64,000 bases of DNA, from NCBI GenBank assembly GCA_943789165.1, contig CALSTB010000005.1, positions 56,398 through 120,397 of the forward strand, in the 5' to 3' direction. This stretch comes from an uncultured Bacteroidia bacterium. Its GTDB lineage: Bacteria > Bacteroidota > Bacteroidia > NS11-12g > UBA9320. A program made the translations under genes and the position numbers. This document shows positions 1 to 9,328 of the stretch, one piece after another. The first letter of the stretch is position 1, and each line of letters opens with the position of its first letter. The notes under the pieces were generated by a model. That model searched no databases, was not told the DNA's origin, and worked only from the letters and a program-made list of their open reading frames with translations.

Positions 1-2945
1 GTGGTATATACTCTGAAGACTCACCTACAATAACCAATTGCACCTTTTTCAATAACAAAGCAACTACCACTTCAAAAGGCGGTGGTGGTGTATATGCAAT
101 AAATGCAGGAACTACTACGGTATCAAATTGTATATTTTTTGGAAATAAAATAGGCTCATCTACGACTAATGTTGGTTCAGATATTAAAAACGGTACTGGT
201 CATACAACCACTGTAGACTACAGTATGGTACAACTTGCTAGCGGAAGTTATACCTCTGGAAACACCAATGCCCTCACATCTGCAACCAATATGGTCTATA
301 ACCAAGACCCATTATTCAGCGGTCATGGTGGTCCAGATGGAGTAGATAATGTATGGATGACGGAGGATGACGGACTCAGATTAAATAGTAATAGCCCTGC
401 AGTAGATGCGGGACTTAATAGTGCCATAAGTGGGTATTCTACAGATATTGTAGGTACTGCTCGTGTGGTGAATACTAACGTAAATATGGGAGCTTATGAG
501 GTTCTTTGTTCTGAAACGACTGAAACGATAACAGCAAATGTTTGTGATAGCTATACCTCTCCAAGTGGCAGGCATACCTGGTTTAGAACAGGAATATATA
601 AAGACACGATTCCAAACGCAGCAGGTTGCGATAGTATTCTAACAATAAACTTAACGGTAATTGCAACACCAATAGTTACTGTCAGCACGCTCGCTGGTAG
701 TTCTCAGGGCTATACAGATGGTACAGGGACATCGGCTCAGTTTAAATATCCTACTGGAGTAGCGGTCGATGGCGCTGGAAATGTGTATGTAGCGGATCAG
801 TTAAACCACCGCATTCGAAAAATAACTGCATCAGGTGTGGTCAGCACGCTCGCTGGTAGTTCTCAGGGCTATACAGATGGTACAGGGACATCGGCTAAGT
901 TTGACTATCCTATAGGAGTAGCGGTCGATGGCGATGGAAATGTGTATGTAGCGGATGGGTCAAACCACCGCATTCGAAAAATAACTACATCAGGTGTGGT
1001 CAGCACGCTCGCTGGTAGTACATATGGCTATACAGATGGTACAGGGACATCGGCTAAGTTTAACGGTCCTAGCGGAGTAGCGGTCGATGGCGCTGGAAAT
1101 GTGTATGTAGCGGATTACTTTAACCACCGCATTCGAAAAATAACTACATCAGGTGTGGTCAGCACGCTCGCTGGTAGTTCTCAGGGCTATACAGATGGTA
1201 CAGGGACATCGGCTAAGTTTGACTATCCTTATGGAGTAGCGGTCGATGGCGCTGGAAATGTGTATGTAGCGGATCAGAATAACCACCGCATTCGAAAAAT
1301 AACTGTATCAGGTGTGGTCAGCACGCTCGCTGGTAGTACAAATGGCTATACAGATGGTACAGGGACATCGGCTCAGTTTAAATATCCTACTGGAGTAGCG
1401 GTCGATGGCGCTGGAAATGTGTATGTAGCGGATGAGTCAAACCACCGCATTCGAAAAATAACTACATCAGGTGTGGTCAGCACGCTCGCTGGTAGTACAT
1501 CTGGCTATACAGATGGTACAGGGACATCGGCTCAGTTTAAATATCCTAGCGGAGTAGCGGTCGATGGCGCTGGAAATGTGTATGTAGCGGATATCAGTAA
1601 CCACAGCATTCGAAAAATAACGTTAAGTGCTGGTAGTGCTGAAACAACTGAAACGATAACAGCAAATGTATGTGATAGCTATACCTCTCCAAGTGGAAAA
1701 ACTTGGACAACAAGCAACACGTATTCAGATACGATTCCAAACACTGCGGGTTGTGATAGTGTTATCACGGTGAACCTTACGGTGAGATATAAAAGTTCCT
1801 TCTCGTTCGCAGAAACGGTATATGAAACCTTTACATCGCCAAGCGGAAAAACATGGACAAATTCAGGCACATATTTAGACACAATACCTAATGACGTTAA
1901 TTGTGACAGCATCATAACGGTCGATTTGACTGTAATCAACAAGTTATTTGTCGATACAGATGGTTCATCAGGAACAGGAAAATCATGGGGGACTTCAATG
2001 AAAACCCTAGATGACGCCATCAAAGTAGCTAATGCAACGGGCAATCATGCTGAAATATGGGTGCGTAAAGGAATGTATTATCCTGGCGGACAATCGAGCA
2101 GCAATCGAGATTCAGCGTTCCTAATTACCAATCCAAATGTTGAATTATTAGGAGGTTTTTCTGGAACAGAGACAGAGCCTGGTCAACGAAATCAAACGGC
2201 CAATCCAACCATATTGTGTGGAGATATCGGTACAACAAACGATTCCTCGGATAATGCATATCACGTATTGATTATTGCACCAAACGGATCAGACATCGGA
2301 CCTAATTTTAAACTAGATGGGTTAACCTTTAAAAACGGTAACGCTGACGGTAGCACTAAATATACGTATGGCAGTAGAGACGTTTACCAAACCGATGGGG
2401 GAGCAATAACGATTATGGGCAGTGGAACCACTGGTCAAGAGATTAGTCCAACGATTACCAATTGTCATTTTGAAGGAAATTATGGCGATTATGGCTCGAT
2501 TTACATACGCGTGCCTAATGGTAAGTCTTTTGCAACCATTAGCCATTGTACGTTTAAAAACAACCATTCAATTTATGGCGCTATCTTTAACGATGGTCAA
2601 GCAGGTGAAGTATCTCCAAACATTGTAAACTGTGCCTTTGATGGCAACACAAGTGCCACTTCGGGTGCAGCGATATACAACTATGGTTATGGAGGCAAAT
2701 GCTCTCCAACAATCACAAGTTGTGTGTTTAACAGCAACAGTGCTAGTTCAATGGGAGGAGCAATCTATAACACGGGTTATGGTGGAACATCCAATCCAGT
2801 GATCACAAACGCTACCTTCCATGCAAACGCAGCTGGTTCTCATGCAGGAGCGATGTATAGCTTTGGTAACAGCGGAACATGCCAACCTAAGGTGACCAAC
2901 TCTATCTTTTACAAAAACACAAAAGGTGGAGATGATGGACCATAA
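1..2945 (+). CDS. Giant T9SS-secreted adhesin-like protein, upstream part (5' end beyond window): Pmp-like right-handed beta-helix repeats, six NHL repeats, Cys-containing approx. 50-aa repeats
   Basis: Frame 3 is open from nt 3. Repeated NCTFxxN...GGAIY/GAAIYN motifs match polymorphic-membrane-protein-type beta-helix repeats. There are six YVAD..NHRIRKIT NHL repeats. A DPLF..DGxDNVW.TEDDGLRL...MGAYE motif occurs. The reading frame is interrupted at 2893-2945 and continues in the next ORF. Confidence 0.6.
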   Translation, partial: GIYSEDSPTITNCTFFNNKATTTSKGGGGVYAINAGTTTVSNCIFFGNKIGSSTTNVGSDIKNGTGHTTTVDYSMVQLASGSYTSGNTNALTSATNMVYNQDPLFSGHGGPDGVDNVWMTEDDGLRLNSNSPAVDAGLNSAISGYSTDIVGTARVVNTNVNMGAYEVLCSETTETITANVCDSYTSPSGRHTWFRTGIYKDTIPNAAGCDSILTINLTVIATPIVTVSTLAGSSQGYTDGTGTSAQFKYPTGVAVDGAGNVYVADQLNHRIRKITASGVVSTLAGSSQGYTDGTGTSAKFDYPIGVAVDGDGNVYVADGSNHRIRKITTSGVVSTLAGSTYGYTDGTGTSAKFNGPSGVAVDGAGNVYVADYFNHRIRKITTSGVVSTLAGSSQGYTDGTGTSAKFDYPYGVAVDGAGNVYVADQNNHRIRKITVSGVVSTLAGSTNGYTDGTGTSAQFKYPTGVAVDGAGNVYVADESNHRIRKITTSGVVSTLAGSTSGYTDGTGTSAQFKYPSGVAVDGAGNVYVADISNHSIRKITLSAGSAETTETITANVCDSYTSPSGKTWTTSNTYSDTIPNTAGCDSVITVNLTVRYKSSFSFAETVYETFTSPSGKTWTNSGTYLDTIPNDVNCDSIITVDLTVINKLFVDTDGSSGTGKSWGTSMKTLDDAIKVANATGNHAEIWVRKGMYYPGGQSSSNRDSAFLITNPNVELLGGFSGTETEPGQRNQTANPTILCGDIGTTNDSSDNAYHVLIIAPNGSDIGPNFKLDGLTFKNGNADGSTKYTYGSRDVYQTDGGAITIMGSGTTGQEISPTITNCHFEGNYGDYGSIYIRVPNGKSFATISHCTFKNNHSIYGAIFNDGQAGEVSPNIVNCAFDGNTSATSGAAIYNYGYGGKCSPTITSCVFNSNSASSMGGAIYNTGYGGTSNPVITNATFHANAAGSHAGAMYSFGNSGTCQPKVTNSIFYKNTKGGDDGP
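670..1625 (+). repeat. Six tandem 159-bp (53-aa) NHL-repeat units with near-identical DNA sequence
   Basis: The string gtcagcacgctcgctggtag recurs at 681, 840, 999, 1158, 1317 and 1476, a period of exactly 159 nt. Long blocks (gtagcggtcgatggcgctggaaatgtgtatgtagcggat, aaccaccgcattcgaaaaataact) are identical between units. Confidence 0.9.
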
Positions 2946-4410
2946 GTTTAGTGAGTTCTATAACTATGCAGCGTATCCATACATAAAAAATAGTTCGATG
3001 CAACGTGCAAGCTCAACATACACAGCAAGCACATTCAACAGCTTAAATAGTGGAACAAACAACATCTTCCAGACCAATCCAAACTTTGAGGCGATTGCCG
3101 ATGGCAATGGTGCGGATGATGTTTGGAGAACAGGAGATGATGGATTGAGATTATCTTCCTCAAGTACCAACTTGTTAAACGGTGGAACCAATACAGGTGC
3201 CCCAACTGCGGATATCTTAGGAAATCAGCGTATGGGAACAACCGACATGGGTGCTTACGAGTATGTCAACTGTGGCTTAAATGTTAAACTAGCTACTTCG
3301 GTTACCACTCATACAGCAACGCAAAGTGTTGTGGATGGTAATTTTGTATGCTACTGTAACAGCGACAATGAATTACTCTTGGCTCTTGACACCAATGGAA
3401 CTGGGGCGGTGATTACACCTAGTCAGGTAAAACTATACATTGGCAATCCATCAACCTTGAGTTACAACTCTGCTGGCGGTATGATAACCAACACGGCTGG
3501 TGGTGTGATACTAGAAAGACGTTGGGATGTGGAACCAACGACTCAACCAACTTCTCCTGTAACGGTTCGTTACTTCTACACCAACGACAACTACGGTGAC
3601 ATTGTAACGGCTATGGCTGGATTAACATCGCCTACAACCATTACTTCGCCAAGTCAACTACAGTTTTACAAGGTAACAGGCGGCTCATCGGCAACCTTCC
3701 CGAACCCACATGATACGGGAGTAACGGGTATTGTACTGACCAACGGAACAACAGCCAGCACAACAGTGTGGGTTAATGGAACACATGGTGTACAAGACCA
3801 TACAGCAGAATACCTAGTAAGCACGTTCTCCGGTGGTGGAGGCGGAGGCGGGGGTGGATCTAGCCCACTACCAGTGGAACTGATCCAGTTCGAAGCAAGC
3901 CCAGCAGCTAGTCATACAGCAGACCTTACATGGAAGACCGCATCAGAGCTAAACAACTCACATTTTGTAGTTGAACGTAGCTATGATGGTAGAGACTTCC
4001 AGGCAGCAGCAATTGTTCAAGGAAACGGGACAACACAAAACGTGATTACCTACAACCACAACGACAATACGATTGATCTAGCACAAAACACTGTGTTCTA
4101 TCGATTACGTCAGGTGGACTTTGATGGCACCACGGCTTACTCACCAGTAAGACGAGTAGACTTTGAAGGCAGCATCATACCAAACAGCGTAACGCTTTAT
4201 CCAAACCCAACAAAAGGAACGGTTACGGTTAGCTTTACAGACGATGAGGCTGAAAGTCATGCGATTAAAGTAATTGACAACCTCGGAAGAGAGCTGTACA
4301 AGCAAACCTTCGACGGACAAGCCATAGAGCTTGATTTGTCGAGCCAAGCAACGGGCATCTACTTTATCATTTTAGATTCTGGTGAATCCTTTAAAGTGAT
4401 TAAACAGTAG
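2926..4410 (+). CDS. Giant T9SS adhesin, downstream part: second DPLF..DDGLRL..MGAYEY module, poly-Gly linker, conserved pre-CTD approx. 100-aa domain, T9SS type-A C-terminal sorting domain
   Basis: It begins in a different frame 20 nt before the upstream ORF's stop. The C-terminus VTLYPNPTKGTVTVSF...GIYFIILDSGESFKVIKQ is a Por_Secre_tail (type A CTD). A G9 run sits at aa approx. 305. The LTWKTASELNNSHFVVERS...FYRLRQVDFDGTTAYSPV domain is shared with two other proteins in the window. Confidence 0.6.
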   Translation: MEMMDHKFSEFYNYAAYPYIKNSSMQRASSTYTASTFNSLNSGTNNIFQTNPNFEAIADGNGADDVWRTGDDGLRLSSSSTNLLNGGTNTGAPTADILGNQRMGTTDMGAYEYVNCGLNVKLATSVTTHTATQSVVDGNFVCYCNSDNELLLALDTNGTGAVITPSQVKLYIGNPSTLSYNSAGGMITNTAGGVILERRWDVEPTTQPTSPVTVRYFYTNDNYGDIVTAMAGLTSPTTITSPSQLQFYKVTGGSSATFPNPHDTGVTGIVLTNGTTASTTVWVNGTHGVQDHTAEYLVSTFSGGGGGGGGGSSPLPVELIQFEASPAASHTADLTWKTASELNNSHFVVERSYDGRDFQAAAIVQGNGTTQNVITYNHNDNTIDLAQNTVFYRLRQVDFDGTTAYSPVRRVDFEGSIIPNSVTLYPNPTKGTVTVSFTDDEAESHAIKVIDNLGRELYKQTFDGQAIELDLSSQATGIYFIILDSGESFKVIKQ

Positions 4411-4450
4411 TGAGAAAGTATCGTATTACTACACAAATACAATAAGAGAA

Positions 4451-4478
4451 GGCCATTCGTTTTACGGATGGCTTTTTT
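4451..4478 (+). terminator. Rho-independent terminator after the adhesin gene
   Basis: A 9-bp stem ggccattcg/cggatggct with two G.U pairs and loop tttta is followed by TTTTTT. Confidence 0.55.
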
Positions 4479-4619
4479 GTTGTTCAATTGATTTGAAAAT
4501 ATAAAAAGTGAAGTAAACAAGATATCGGGTTGGTGAAAGTATTTACGGATATAAGTTGGTTTAAGACCAGTAGCTAGTTACGAATACTAGTTTTATATAT
4601 TACTAACGCGTAATATTAT

Positions 4620-5591
4620 TTGTATATTCGCTTTATGGAGTTCAAGCCCCTTGAATCATATCTATCTGATCCTAGTCCTTACACAAGCCGTAGACTCGTG
4701 GAACAGTTGGGTGAGGAAAAGTTTACCATTAATGACATAGGCGTTAGTTCACGGGTGTTTACCCATTGGCGATCAAATGGGTTAATCCCTGAAATAGAGG
4801 ATGGCTCATGGGTAAAACTGAATGTGTTTCAATTTATCTGGGTACAGATAATTAAAGACTTGCGTGCGTTTAACTTTTCTTTAAAGCAGATTGTCAAAGT
4901 ACGCGCTTCGCTATTTGAGTCCTTCGAAGGGTTTGCTACGGCGGATTTGTTTGATAAAAAAGGAAAGATAACCAAGGTATTGCGAGCACAGCTTAAAAAG
5001 ATGTTCGACAATCACCAAGAGATAATTGAAGGCCTAGAAAGTGGTTTCGAGTCGGATTCAAATTCAATAAAAGATTTCCTTGAGGCTTTTCAAATCCCAT
5101 TGCTCCTATCACTTAGCTTGAACGTATTGTTCCGTGCAATGGATCACACGCTACTGATTAGGCCAGATGGTCGAGTTGATTATACTTCAGAAACGCAAGA
5201 CGAGACATTGGCCAATTACTTGTCCGAGCACGATGCGGAGTCCATCTTGGTGCTTCCACTCAAAAAGTACATTCTGGTGCTGGTATCGACAAAAAAACTA
5301 GAAGATAAAGTTGGTAATATGGCCCTGGTTACCCAAGTTGAAATGGAAGTTTTACAAGCCATGCGGCAGGGAACGCTATCCGAACTTAGAATAATTTTTG
5401 ACCCCAAAGACCAACACGCAGATTTGGTGTATACCTATAAAGGGGTTGTACCCGAAAATGAAATGAGTAAAGTTTTAGATCGTTTTCGGCATAAAAAACA
5501 CGTTCAATTGTCTATGAAAACCAATGACGGTAAAACGGTATCTTTCGAATACCAAGACCGAAAACGGGTCCATAAATTAAATGGAAATTAA
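4620..5591 (+). CDS. Hypothetical protein with N-terminal MerR/excisionase-like helix-turn-helix; unknown function, adjacent to iteron-like repeats and a serine recombinase
   Basis: TINDIGVSSRVFTHWRSNGLI resembles a MerR-type HTH; the rest has no recognisable family. The more likely start is the ATG at 4635 (MEFKPL). Confidence 0.5.
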   Translation: MYIRFMEFKPLESYLSDPSPYTSRRLVEQLGEEKFTINDIGVSSRVFTHWRSNGLIPEIEDGSWVKLNVFQFIWVQIIKDLRAFNFSLKQIVKVRASLFESFEGFATADLFDKKGKITKVLRAQLKKMFDNHQEIIEGLESGFESDSNSIKDFLEAFQIPLLLSLSLNVLFRAMDHTLLIRPDGRVDYTSETQDETLANYLSEHDAESILVLPLKKYILVLVSTKKLEDKVGNMALVTQVEMEVLQAMRQGTLSELRIIFDPKDQHADLVYTYKGVVPENEMSKVLDRFRHKKHVQLSMKTNDGKTVSFEYQDRKRVHKLNGN

Positions 5592-5690
5592 TTGATAATT
5601 AATTCAGATTAATTGATAATAAACTCGGATTAATTGATAATTAATTCAGATTAATTGATAATAAACTCGGATTAATTGATTTTTAAATGG
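5588..5690. repeat. Iteron-like array: five direct copies of TTAATTGATAA spaced approx. 21 bp, organised as 2.5 tandem copies of a 42-bp unit
   Basis: Copies start at 5588, 5608, 5630, 5651 and 5672 (the last is degenerate). The array is flanked by aaatggaaattaat at 5578 and 5684. Confidence 0.85.
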
Positions 5691-5926
5691 AAATTAATGG
5701 ACAAAAAGAGGTGTAGATGCAGTAATGACAAGGCATTGAAGAACTCAAGCCAATTAAATACGGGTTCATTAGAAACGGAAACACCGCTAATGGGCATACT
5801 CCAATTGAGTTATGTCAGAAAAGTCAAAACAAGGACTTACAATACAAGAATTAAAAACCTATAGCGGATTTGAAAAACTAAGTGAGAAGGAATTAGAACA
5901 AGCGCTTCGATTTATTGAGTTGATGA

Positions 5927-7543
5927 GTGAGGTGCTTATTGAAACATTTAAGTAAAAGAATAATGCAGCATGTAGATCAACAATTGGCAGTCTTTGCCAA
6001 AGGGCAAAAGAACAACAAAGGGAAGGCCATTACAGCGGTCATGTATACCCGTGTATCGACCAAGGAACAGGCCGATAACAATCAGAGTCTCTTTACGCAA
6101 GCAAAGCACATCAAGCAATTTGCAATGAACAATGATTTGCAGATAATAGGGGAATTTGGTGGGACTTATGAAAGCGCCAAGAGTGATGAACGGGTTCAGT
6201 TCAAACAAATGATTGCCTTTGTCAAAAGACATAAGGTAGATGCCATTGTGGTATACTCGATGGATCGCTTTTCAAGAAGTGGTCCCAATGCTATTTACAT
6301 TTCAGAACAACTCAGAAAGATAGGTACTGAGATTATATCTGTAACCCAACCTGTAGACGCCTCTACAGCTGCTGGGGAATTGCAACAGGGAATTTACTTT
6401 ATGTTCTCACAATATGAGAATCAGCAAAGGCGCTTAAAGTCCATGGCGGGCACCCGTGAAAAGCTATTACAAGGACATTGGGTTACCAAACCACCCTTAG
6501 GGTACAAGAAGATCACAGAAGGTGGACAAAAGAAAATAGTCATCACAAAAGAAGGTAGATTGCTGGCAGCAGCATTTAGAAGAAAGATTAAGTACAACTA
6601 CGAATTTACTGAAATTAGTAAGTGGCTGTCAACAAGAGGTCTAAAGGTGAGTCATAAAAGATTATCTGAGTTATGTAGAAACGTATTTTATTGCGGTTTC
6701 ATGGCCCATCAGGCATTAAATGGAGAGATTGTAAAGGGCAATCATGAAGGACTCATCACACGTAATGAGTTCTTGAAGCTGAATGGCATGCTTCAAATCA
6801 GACCTGCCAAAAAGCCAAAATCAAAAATGTTGGATCATCTACCCTTAAAGAGGCACATGCATTGCTCAAAGTGCAGCAAACCAATGACGGGTTACTTTGT
6901 GCGACCAAAGAAGTTATATTACTACAAGTGCAATACGAAAGGTTGTAAAGTCAATAGAAGTGCTAAGGTGTTAAACCGAAACTGGGAACAGACGCTTTCC
7001 AATCTTCAGATAGATGCAAAATACGTTACACCCATCCAAGAACAGCTCAAAAGAAAGCTCGAAAGCTTAAAAGAAGACTCTGGTGATGGGCTAAAACAGT
7101 ATCGCAGTAACAAAACAAAGGTTGAGAGGAAGATAGAGATGTTGGAAGAACGATTTGTAATAGGAGAAATTACCAAAGACTTATTTGATAAGTACGCTGC
7201 TAAATATAGAGAAGAATTGGTGGCAATATTAGAAGAAATCGACAAATGTGGAATTTCATTATCGAACCCTGATCAGGTAATCAAGCAGGCCACTGATTTG
7301 ATGTCTAAACTTCAGAAAACCTGGCAGTTATCAAAATCAACAGAAAGATCAAAGTTGCTTAAAGCGGTCTACCCAAGCGGAATTTGGCTTGATCCTGAAA
7401 ATAACAGTTATCGAACTTTTGGTTTGAACCCAGCGGTGCGCTGTATCCTAGATATAACGGGGAAATCCGTAGAAAAGGAAAAGCGGAATAGTGAAGATAA
7501 ACTCACATATTCCGCTTTGGTAGAGGGAATCAGAACGTTATAG
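5927..7543 (+). mobile_element. Large serine recombinase (resolvase/integrase family with recombinase domain and zinc ribbon)
   Basis: N-terminal catalytic motif VMYTRVSTKEQ...DRFSRS. The C-terminus carries CSKCSKPMTGYF...YYYKCNTKGC, a zinc ribbon typical of large serine recombinases, followed by a coiled-coil tail. Length is 538 aa. The true start may be an internal Met. Confidence 0.9.
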
Positions 7544-7581
7544 AACTTTTGTTGCAGAGGCGGAAAATTCTGACATGCCAT

Positions 7582-7836
7582 AGTTAATGCAACAGAACCA
7601 AGTTTACACATTCGGCACCAGAAGCATTTAACGAACTAATGAAACAAAACGAGCAATCGATCCGACCAAGTTTGGTGAGACCAACGTTTGATATTGGTTT
7701 GGGATATCGATTTACGTCACATCTGAGCGTACAAGCTCAGTTTCGAAAATCTTGGACAACCAAATCGGTGTTAATTGCTGACCCCAATAAGCTAAACACG
7801 TCTGGTGTTAAATTAGGTTTGATGTATCGGTTTTAA
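7582..7836 (+). pseudogene. 3' remnant of an outer-membrane beta-barrel protein gene (no start codon, C-terminal ...GLMYRF)
   Basis: The sequence alternates hydrophobic beta-strand residues and ends in a C-terminal Phe, typical of OMP beta-barrels. The frame is open only from the stop at approx. 7579 and the N-terminal part is absent. It sits immediately 3' of the serine recombinase. Confidence 0.4.
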
Positions 7837-7860
7837 TACCTGATACTCCTATTTCTTTGT

Positions 7861-7868
7861 TACTTTTG
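7861..7868 (+). promoter_or_regulatory. Bacteroidetes sigma-A -7 element TAnnTTTG (TACTTTTG) 17 bp upstream of the aldehyde dehydrogenase start
   Basis: Exact match to the Bacteroidetes -7 consensus at the expected distance from the ATG. The identical octamer recurs at 21727 and 55730. Confidence 0.35.
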
Positions 7869-7885
7869 ACCTGTAAAACAGCCCT

Positions 7886-9328
7886 ATGTTTCAGCTCAAA
7901 AACTATATCAACGGTGAGTTAGTACCACCTGCTTCTATTCAGTATATCGACAATTTCGAACCAGCTACTGGTAAAATATATGCGCAAATTCCAAGATCGG
8001 ATAAGGCAGATATTGATAAAGCCGTCGCATCTGCCAAAGCAGCGTTTCCAGCTTGGAGTAAAATGCGCACTGAAGAGCGAAGTGCCATCATTATGAAGTT
8101 GTCAGATCTAATTGAGGAGAATTTAGATCGATTGGCAGAAGCGGAAAGTCGAGACAATGGCAAACCTCTGTGGTTGGCTAAATCTGTAGATATTCCTAGA
8201 GCTCGTGATAATTTTGGTTTTTTTGGAACAGCCATCAAACACTTTGCAAGTGAAAGTCATCGAACGGGTGAAGGCTTAATCAATTTTACAACAAGAACAC
8301 CCATCGGAGTGGCGGGTTGTGTTTCCCCATGGAATTTGCCCTTGTATTTGTTTAGTTGGAAGGTGGCTCCAGCATTGGCTGCAGGCAATACCGTCGTCGC
8401 CAAACCAAGTGAAGTGACACCTATGACGGCTTATTTGTTGTCGGAGTTGTGTATCGAAGCAGGTTTTCCAAAGGGCGTTTTTAACATCGTACATGGACTC
8501 GGCGCAGAAGCAGGTAACGCGATTGTCGAACATCCTGATGTGCCGATTATTTCCTTTACTGGAGGAACATCTACGGGTGCTCACATCGCACGAACAGCAG
8601 CACCGATGTTTAAGAAATTGAGCTTGGAACTGGGCGGAAAAAACCCAAACATCATTTTTGATGACTGCGATTTTGACAAAGCATTAAAAACGACATTGAA
8701 TTCATCATTTGCCAATCAAGGTCAAATCTGTTTGTGTGGATCGAGAATTTATATCCAACGAGGAATCTATGAAAAATTCCGTGATGCCTTTGTTGACAAA
8801 GTATCCAAGTTTAAAGTGGGCAACCCCATGGCTGATGATAGCCGTATGGGCGCCATCGTTTCTGAACAACACTTCGAAAAAGTAAAAAGCTATATCGCCC
8901 TAGCGAAAGAAGAAGGTGGGACGATTTTGACGGGTGGAGAGGCAGTTCAGCTGGATGGAGAATTTGCCGAGGGTTGGTACTTAAGACCTACTATTATTGA
9001 AGGACTGGATGAGAATTGTCGCACCAATCAAGAAGAGATCTTCGGACCTGTGGTGACGATCCAACCGTTTGATACGGAAGAAGAAGCCTTGGCTTTAGCG
9101 AACTCAACTGGCTATGGTTTGGCCTCAACTATTTGGACTCAGGACATATCAAAAGCACACCGAATGGCTGATACAATCAAAGCCGGCATCGTTTGGGTGA
9201 ATTGTTGGTTGGTCCGTGATTTGCGAACTCCATTTGGGGGCATGAAAAACTCTGGCGTCGGGCGTGAAGGCGGCTGGGAAGCATTGAAGTTTTTTACCGA
9301 AGCGAAGAATATTTGCATCAAGTATTAA
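7886..9328 (+). CDS. NAD(P)-dependent aldehyde dehydrogenase
   Basis: ALDH hallmarks are present: ELGGKNP, catalytic Cys in FANQGQICLCGSRIY, a GxGxxG-like FTGGTSTG, and a length of 480 aa. Confidence 0.9.
   Translation: MFQLKNYINGELVPPASIQYIDNFEPATGKIYAQIPRSDKADIDKAVASAKAAFPAWSKMRTEERSAIIMKLSDLIEENLDRLAEAESRDNGKPLWLAKSVDIPRARDNFGFFGTAIKHFASESHRTGEGLINFTTRTPIGVAGCVSPWNLPLYLFSWKVAPALAAGNTVVAKPSEVTPMTAYLLSELCIEAGFPKGVFNIVHGLGAEAGNAIVEHPDVPIISFTGGTSTGAHIARTAAPMFKKLSLELGGKNPNIIFDDCDFDKALKTTLNSSFANQGQICLCGSRIYIQRGIYEKFRDAFVDKVSKFKVGNPMADDSRMGAIVSEQHFEKVKSYIALAKEEGGTILTGGEAVQLDGEFAEGWYLRPTIIEGLDENCRTNQEEIFGPVVTIQPFDTEEEALALANSTGYGLASTIWTQDISKAHRMADTIKAGIVWVNCWLVRDLRTPFGGMKNSGVGREGGWEALKFFTEAKNICIKY

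Follow-up and report, generated by a model that had tools for sequence, protein, structure and literature searches.

A helically phased, copy-number-variable repeat array beside the recombinase operon of a tRNA-targeting integrative element in Bacteroidia

The DNA considered here is a 64-kb stretch (64,000 nucleotides) of contig CALSTB010000005.1 from an uncultured Bacteroidia bacterium; this whole stretch is referred to as the window, coordinates without a prefix are positions in it, and homologous loci of other genomes are designated by L numbers. The window encodes type IX secretion system (T9SS) sorting domains and a DUF4290 protein, in keeping with a host from the Bacteroidota. It carries, on the forward strand, a trio of genes belonging to an integrative element: a gene for a 318-aa MerR-type winged helix-turn-helix (HTH) protein (4635..5591), hereafter the regulator, a conserved open reading frame (ORF) of 47 aa without assigned function (5812..5955), and, 7 nt further on, the gene for a large serine recombinase of 526 aa, counted from its ATG at 5963 (5963..7543). 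The short spacer that separates the regulator gene from the other two contains an array of tandem repeats (5577..5704), a conserved imperfect inverted repeat (5732..5751) and a conserved hairpin (5764..5795), all described on the forward strand. An earlier note on this DNA had placed the array between an HTH-protein gene and a serine-recombinase gene, which is where it lies.

The array consists of six homologous units of 21-22 bp, each formed of a 9-10-nt spacer followed by the core ATTAATKGAYAA. Core starts fall at 5587, 5608, 5629 and 5650, at which ATTAATTGATAA repeats at an exact spacing of 21 bp, and then, in degenerate form, at 5671 and 5693. According to Tandem Repeats Finder, 5587-5680 comprises 2.2 copies of a 42-bp period with 100% matches (score 188) or, alternatively, 4.5 copies of a 21-bp period with 87% matches (score 146), and the array is the sole high-scoring non-coding tandem repeat that this program reports in the 64-kb window. 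The earlier note had listed five direct copies of an 11-mer; those at 5588, 5630 and 5651 are exact as described, but the second copy begins at 5609 instead of 5608, and the copy at 5672 (TTAATTGATTT) agrees with the 11-mer at only 9 of 11 positions. The exact 11-mer TTAATTGATAA is accordingly present four times (5588, 5609, 5630, 5651) and has no further exact copy in the 64-kb window, where seven matches with one mismatch occur elsewhere, a chance level (4.4 expected in total). The sequence AAATGGAAATTAAT does flank the array at both ends, at 5579-5592 and 5685-5698, as had been seen; what had been missed is a sixth, degenerate site within the distal flank (ATTAATGGACAA at 5693, 22 bp past the fifth site) and a series of eight palindromic ATTAAT hexamers, spaced by 11, 10, 21, 11, 10, 21 and 22 bp, for which 0.08 would be expected per 112 bp. 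Pairs of adjoining A and B units also form AATTAAT-N5-ATTAATT palindromes, which alleles of the L001 type do not have. Unit 1 overlaps the end of the regulator gene, whose last five codons (KLNGN) and TAA stop (5589-5591) it encodes.

As all units measure 21 or 22 bp and ATTAAT recurs every 10-11 bp, the sites all face the same side of the helix, and the DNA, with an A+T content of 81%, is predicted to be intrinsically curved. The curvature calculated for 5577-5704 with a dinucleotide wedge model is exceeded by 0.5% of the 128-bp tiles of the window and by 2.6% of shuffled sequences. When the internal unit types are compared, the 12-nt core proves constant, all four variable positions falling in the 9-nt spacer (P about 0.02).

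The two-turn phasing proposed for the array holds well beyond the window, and the suggestion that the same array be sought beside homologous recombinase genes proved fruitful, since it recurs in phase at 28 other loci. Six sites are present at 13 of these window-type loci, four at 12, five at one and three at two, and whatever the number of sites the spacings are 21 and 22 bp. None of the 28 copies of the window lineage is devoid of an array. The possibility, raised together with the array, that it might be a common polymorphism lacking conserved phasing is consequently right in one half and wrong in the other: copy number is polymorphic (3 to 6 sites, with 4 or 6 at one and the same site), but the phasing is always kept. 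A second array was found in L009, whose regulator is 43% identical to that of the window. There a different motif, TGTATTTAA, is amplified at the same place in five copies spaced by 22, 21, 11 and 11 bp; this array likewise begins at the regulator stop codon, and it keeps one TTAATTC-NNN-TTAATTG segment homologous to the window unit. Two different phased motifs at the same place mean that amplification in helical register happened twice.

Downstream of the array, at a distance of 27 bp, stands the imperfect inverted repeat GGCATTGAAGAACTCAAGCC (5732-5751, hairpin 1), found in all relatives within about 34% protein identity, array-less ones included, under the common form GGCATTGAAnAACnCAAGCC. 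Its ATTGAA and CAA are invariant, and L019 alone shows a change of GGC/GCC to GAT/ATC. In lineages without an array this downstream element lies within about 3-30 nt of the regulator stop codon, and in the very distant L036 and L037 a different palindrome occupies the equivalent position. The array core of the window contains ATTGAT and that of L009 ATTGTA, each matching the invariant half-site ATTGAA at 5 of 6 positions; by our own estimate a match of this kind would arise by chance in roughly 10-25% of arrays in such A+T-rich DNA, so that a kinship between array cores and operator half-sites is offered as a lead only. Hairpin 2 (CATTAG-AAA-CGG-AAACA-CCG-CTAATG plus outer pairs, 5764-5795) bears multiple compensatory changes across lineages, such as CATTAG/CTAATG, GTGAG/CTCAC and CTTCAG/CTGAAG. 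An RNAalifold analysis of ten distinct sequences yielded 17 pairs; double-sided compensatory changes were seen in 8 of these, six of the eight in hairpin 2, which also appears in the minimum-free-energy fold of the single sequence. The two-hairpin element is likewise present in L007, L009, L010, L018-L023 and L025, and a search of Rfam across 4300-8000 returned no known RNA family at E<=1. Hairpin 2 is probably a leader or intercistronic RNA structure, and the two-hairpin element as a whole may be an undescribed cis-regulatory motif of Bacteroidota serine-recombinase elements. At L024:9600-11041, homology to the module ends directly after hairpin 1 (...CCAAGC|TTTAAGG), and about 1.3 kb of unrelated sequence, followed by tRNA-Glu, stands in place of the small ORF and the recombinase gene; this locus may be a product of deletion or recombination with its breakpoint at the conserved inverted repeat.

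What protein, then, is encoded beside these elements? The ATG at 4635 agrees with the starts of homologues, the ORF listing having begun at a TTG (4620). The earlier note had called the product an HTH protein, and this can be made more precise: a winged HTH of MerR topology and a helical domain make up its N-terminal ~130 residues, while the C-terminal alpha/beta half gave no informative match. The window ORF has no Pfam match of its own, and distant relatives exceed the MerR_1 cutoff of that database; an exhaustive profile search gathered 1,316 relatives, of which a word-based search had found only 5, and source annotations of the family go at most as far as "MerR regulator" or "hypothetical". 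In a structure model built from 26 sequences (predicted local distance difference test, pLDDT, 84; a six-sequence model with pLDDT 59 was not used), the best structural match is CvkR (PDB 7xn2). CvkR is a 150-aa MerR-type repressor encoded by type V-K CRISPR-associated transposons; it binds upstream of the transposition genes of its element, and in each of two promoters its site is one 15-nt inverted repeat (PMC9938897). The recognition region SSRVFTHWR is invariant, be it in lineages that have the window array, in those that have the L009 array or in those that have none, and L036 and L037 combine a different recognition helix with their different palindrome. Because helix and palindrome differ together in these two loci and CvkR binds a 15-nt inverted repeat, 5732-5751 is to our mind the most plausible candidate for the primary operator of the MerR-type protein, if it is not an RNA hairpin.

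The regulator gene of L008 (L008:844-1794, corresponding to window 4635-5591) is recombinant, its 5' two-thirds being L009-like. Residues 1-100 of its product are 74% identical to L009 and 52% to the window. From window position 5337 on, its DNA is of window type throughout, the six-site array included, as are residues 235-318 of the protein (99-99.7%); over the stretch from 5337 to the end of the recombinase gene, DNA identity to the window is 99.7%. L008 thus shows that element lineages have recently exchanged sequence at a single chromosomal site (its right flank is that of L014). To judge from these alignments, either the same helix reads both kinds of array, or the array is bound by something else, or it is bound by nothing.

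Taken together, these observations lead us to suggest, tentatively and with somewhat less than even confidence, that the array has an accessory binding or bending role beside the operator and leader of the recombinase operon, being specific to one lineage, variable in copy number and intrinsically curved. A rapidly expanding and contracting tandem repeat would have entered the short spacer that separates the regulator's stop codon from the operator and leader of an operon comprising the 47-aa ORF and the large serine recombinase, within an integrative element that targets tRNA genes. It would serve as an accessory platform of curved, phased A+T-rich sites, occupied either by the MerR-type protein of the element spreading from its primary operator at 5732-5751 or by a nucleoid protein of the host; binding or wrapping of this DNA would tune expression of the recombinase operon, and the gain or loss of whole 21-bp units would change the number of sites while keeping their helical register. 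A function of this sort is favoured by the two in-register amplifications, the asymmetry between core and spacer, the curvature and the lack of array loss in the window lineage, and it suits the position of the array just upstream of an inverted repeat and a hairpin that precede the recombinase operon throughout the relatives within about 34% identity, next to the gene of a true MerR-type winged-HTH protein whose closest structure is a mobile-element repressor. The earlier idea of a cooperative transcription-factor array may thereby be retained in the sense of an accessory element, but hardly as the main binding site, in view of the recognition helix that stays invariant whatever the array, the L008 chimera and the better candidate for a primary operator 27 bp downstream. 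It is tempting to go one step further and to imagine a contingency-type rheostat, in which slippage in 21-bp units would set the number of phased sites occupied by the MerR-type regulator or a nucleoid protein beside the operator, and hence cause heritable, reversible differences in excision and integration among sub-populations carrying an element with a giant T9SS surface-protein gene; this extension we regard as rather improbable. If true, such a rheostat together with the two-hairpin leader would make a control circuit of a kind not yet described for the large serine recombinases of Bacteroidota.

A number of observations weigh against a function, and many of them are the behaviour expected of a neutral minisatellite, that is, a variable-number tandem repeat (VNTR) in an A+T-rich, ATTAAT-rich spacer prone to replication slippage or unequal exchange, whose 21-bp period would be accidental. 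At the insertion site between tRNA-Glu and GAPDH, six sites are present in L039 and L047 and four in L040, L046 and L001; as these alleles differ between strains at one insertion site, units must have been gained or lost in situ, and the array displays the copy-number polymorphism between strains at an orthologous locus by which a VNTR is recognised. Alleles of 3, 4, 5 and 6 sites occur among near-identical elements, whose regulator proteins are 97-100% identical, and such variation is that of a neutral minisatellite. The two 42-bp units, being 100% identical, must be very recent duplicates, so that the comparison of core with spacer rests on few independent events, and the terminal units duplicate the regulator gene's own 3' end, as local duplication would. 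The array is absent from L010, L018-L023, L025, L033, L036 and L037, which keep the same gene trio, and from all relatives in which regulator identity is 42% or lower, the L009 array (43%) being the exception already described; missing from most lineages with the same trio, it is dispensable for the element. The TTAATTC-NNN-TTAATTG segment shared by the window and L009 is ancestral, which makes the spacer older than both amplifications and perhaps simply unstable. The combination in L008 of an L009-like HTH domain with a window-type array means that array type does not track the HTH domain, and this want of coupling, next to hypervariability and absence from most relatives, favours neutrality. 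To this must be added that the curvature was calculated with a simple dinucleotide wedge model, that no TAnnTTTG motif lies between the array and the operon, so that a promoter-proximal role of the array is at most conjectural, and that MerR-type regulators, CvkR included, normally bind short inverted repeats and not arrays of direct repeats (PMC9938897). Against neutrality, both independent amplifications took periods in multiples of about 10.5 bp (21/22 and 11), a coincidence that we estimate at roughly 1 in 20 if unit lengths were arbitrary; unit variation is confined to the spacer part; no array-less copy exists among the 28 loci of the window lineage; and no other such array is found in 64 kb of this genome. 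On balance we hold the neutral explanation to be somewhat less likely than an accessory array, of which it is the main rival.

The way in which the trio is transcribed bears on two further explanations. The primary sigma factor of Bacteroidota recognises a -33 TTTG and a -7 TAnnTTTG and not the sigma-70 hexamers. No TAnnTTTG occurs on either strand between 3346 and 7814, other genes of the window having one just upstream, and a near-consensus -7 box precedes the regulator gene by a few bases (ATTATTTG in the window, TATATTTG in the aligned L008 and L009); by its resemblance to the TAnnTTTG consensus, 4611..4634 on the forward strand is probably the promoter of the MerR-like gene. No terminator was found after that gene. 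With no such motif in 3346-7814 and this near-consensus box before the regulator, co-transcription of the whole trio is plausible, and the array might then act in RNA, as an A+U-rich intercistronic spacer upstream of the leader that affects processing, stability or translational coupling. The absence of a canonical -7 box and of a terminator would suit this explanation, as would hairpin 2, whose covariation is that of an RNA structure and suggests that the region is transcribed; but the array by itself has no significant RNA structure (z -1.9, unpaired centroid), its repeat resembles no known RNA motif (Rfam gave none), and helical phasing of DNA would be meaningless for RNA. A role of this type is thus quite improbable. 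A set of tandem promoters is very improbable indeed, even though adjoining units make the pattern TTGATA-17 bp-GATAAT, which agrees with the sigma-70 consensus at 10 of 12 positions, three times over (5592, 5613 and 5634, within 5592-5662) and always toward the recombinase operon, the 21-bp period itself yielding the optimal 17-bp spacer. The host is a member of the Bacteroidia, whose primary sigma factor does not follow that consensus, and the array contains no TTTG; sigma-70-like matches in the region number 6 against 5.4 expected from shuffled sequence, and the L009 array is without the TTGATA-17-GATAAT pattern. If cloned in Escherichia coli, the fragment would likely behave as a strong tandem promoter, which is probably irrelevant in a Bacteroidota host.

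The downstream partner is a large serine recombinase, with the catalytic Resolvase domain (Pfam PF00239, 9e-26) and the Recombinase domain (PF07508, 4e-6), and it matches the integrases of PHROG 95 (8e-70); Zn_ribbon_recom was detected only weakly and in distant relatives. A small ORF of 44-61 aa accompanies it in every relative examined, that of the window (47 aa) having no match in Pfam, PHROG or NCBIfam. The trio of a MerR-like protein of ~310 aa, a small ORF and a large serine recombinase is kept in every relative examined, down to 21% identity (window 4635-7543; L036:4084-6773; L037:5001-7709). The module is present in multiple copies with a defined junction at specific target sites, as befits a mobile element: the complete chromosome OX044357.1 has two copies 1.25 Mb apart, and all copies are chromosomal, beside tRNA or housekeeping genes.

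This context also decides the fate of the readings of the array as iterons of a replication origin or as a partition (centromere-like) site, to be bound by the adjoining protein as a Rep or centromere-binding protein, both of which the earlier note had put forward. The appeal of these readings is plain, as A+T-rich direct repeats of about 21 bp stand in helical phase beside a DNA-binding protein gene, and a circular excised form of the element is probable from what is known of serine integrases. The adjoining protein, however, is of MerR type and not Rep-like. Neither a Rep nor a Par match was obtained in Pfam, PHROG or NCBIfam, and the unit encodes nothing beyond the MerR-like protein, the 47-aa ORF and the recombinase. 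A tblastn search of 72,556 plasmids and 50,697 phages found no homologue of the regulator family, nor did a search of viral contigs, and the array is missing from most of the family, as an origin or a centromere could not be. An adjacent Rep gene, an autonomous replicon with plasmid or phage relatives and repeats kept and co-varying with an initiator are all wanting, as is an adjacent NTPase of the ParA, ParM or TubZ type with its centromere-binding protein. On an element integrated in the chromosome, with no Rep gene and no ParA or ParB gene, we regard either reading as extremely unlikely. A site array for an excisionase (Xis) was considered as well and rejected, for the array is 1.05 kb away from the candidate left end and 1.8 kb away from the right one, and the adjoining protein has 318 aa.

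The right end of the mobile unit, ...TTCCGCTTTGGTAG (7510..7523, forward strand), is the point at which homology with all other copies stops, and it lies inside the last codons of the recombinase gene, which cross into the flank. Its terminal sequence, quoted at the junctions as ...CCGCTTTGGTAG or ...TTTGGTAG, ends at 7523, and at least seven different right flanks follow ...CCGCTTTGGTAG, among them the 3' ends of tRNA-Glu(ttc) and tRNA-Met(cat) on the opposite strand, truncated tRNA fragments and T-arm-like pseudo-sites. In the window, where no tRNA gene was found in the 64 kb, the flank is such a T-arm-like pseudo-site, AGGGAATCAGAACGTTATAGAACTTTT (7524..7550, forward strand), and not a tRNA gene; the same motif of ~26 nt stands at L014:1744 and at L016:3014, where the sequences to its left and right are unrelated. 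The crossing of the element end by the recombinase frame is seen at window 7510-7550, L001:5920-5994, L013:2932-3008, L041:6690 and L043:5895, and it follows that the C-terminal tail of the protein (in versions of 531-542 aa) is encoded by the complement of a tRNA 3' end or of a pseudo-site. The element itself contributes ...CTACCA, which restores the 3' end of the tRNA, and at least seven target sites share a T-arm-like motif of the CAGAATCGAAC type.

The left end may lie at 4531/4532, a candidate boundary suggested by a flank copy free of the module (L014:1-1111); the 18-mer GGTTCTGTTGCATTAACT at this breakpoint is itself repeated, and no empty insertion site was recovered among the loci examined. 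Every window-type copy has the same T9SS/NHL surface-protein gene on its left, whatever its right flank, so that the true left end may lie further upstream, in which case the element would be about 10 kb long with this gene as cargo. The 18-mer GGTTCTGTTGCATTAACT recurs at homology breakpoints near the element (window 7582-7599 on the minus strand; L014:1108 and L014:2228) and possibly marks the end of a further small mobile element; a stretch of about 1.1 kb with an HNH-like motif lies between the two direct copies of L014. The T9SS-sorted NHL-repeat protein varies from 392 to 2,220 aa (window 225-4410; L014:3375-9776; L016:3114-9776; L038-L044); its gene is split in the window into two ORFs of 906 and 494 aa, and its 159-bp (53-aa) NHL repeats are variable in number (5.9 copies at window 681-1621). 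Just right of the element, a 65-aa ORF ending in ...GVKLGLMYRF (7639-7836) resembles the C-terminal fragment of an outer-membrane beta-barrel protein and may be the remnant of a gene disrupted by rearrangement. Some module copies are decayed: insertions of the IS3 family (HTH_Tnp_1 plus rve) interrupt the recombinase gene in L038 (L038:4571-7271) and the regulator gene in L041 and L045 (L041:2851-4780; L045:2755-4672), the small ORF is partly duplicated in L038, and the recombinase is split in L007 (240 + 180 aa).

Large serine recombinases are major tools of genome engineering, and the regulation of the native elements is poorly known beyond a few phages; in the literature we found nothing on MerR-like partners of serine integrases or on Bacteroidetes serine-recombinase elements. 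What emerges here is a module spread across the Bacteroidota, made of a MerR-type protein, an ORF of 44-61 aa and a large serine recombinase with an operator-like inverted repeat and a covarying hairpin, of which one lineage gained a phase-locked variable repeat. Should the array modulate recombinase expression, it would give element mobility a simple natural dial, and the natural alleles of 3 to 6 sites would be an experimental handle on it; should it be neutral, strains of these marine Bacteroidia could still usefully be typed by it. The module around the array, with its conserved leader, may prove the more valuable lead, and the case is a reminder that "iteron-like" geometry alone is no sign of a replicon.

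Among known systems, CvkR is the one to which the adjoining protein is closest in structure. The regulator described here is nevertheless larger, with its extra alpha/beta C-terminal half, and it has a serine recombinase as its partner; the array is made of direct repeats and is no palindrome, so that the palindrome at 5732-5751 is the closer analogue of the CvkR site. Like the iterons of plasmid initiators of the RepA, pi and TrfA type and like the ParR/parC repeats, the array is composed of phased A+T-rich direct repeats of about 20 bp beside a DNA-binding protein gene, but it lacks a Rep or Par protein, a replicon and plasmid relatives, and it is dispensable in its family. With intercistronic minisatellites such as the mycobacterial interspersed repetitive units (MIRUs) it shares a tandem repeat of tens of bp between genes of one transcription unit, a start at the upstream stop codon and a copy number that is polymorphic at one locus; unlike MIRUs, it is confined to one mobile-element lineage instead of being dispersed over the genome, its unit is locked to two helical turns, and a sister lineage has a second, different phased repeat at the same site. 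The site arrays of excisionases, such as X1/X1.5/X2 of lambda Xis and X1-X4 of mycobacteriophage L5 gp36, are phased direct repeats bound head-to-tail by winged-helix proteins of the MerR/Xis type of 55-110 aa, which bend the DNA; they lie within about 100 bp of the crossover and serve tyrosine integrases. The array resembles them in being a set of helically phased direct repeats in an integrative element that targets a tRNA gene, and departs from them in its distance from the ends of the element, over 1 kb to the candidate left junction at 4531/4532 and 1.8 kb to the right end, and in accompanying a recombinase of the large serine type, which needs no arm sites. Formally, the array is a VNTR that falls outside the iteron, centromere and Xis-array classes, since the defining features of these were looked for and not found, and by analogy its nearest functional counterparts would be the MerR-type repressors of mobile-element recombination genes, such as CvkR, and the phased excisionase site arrays.

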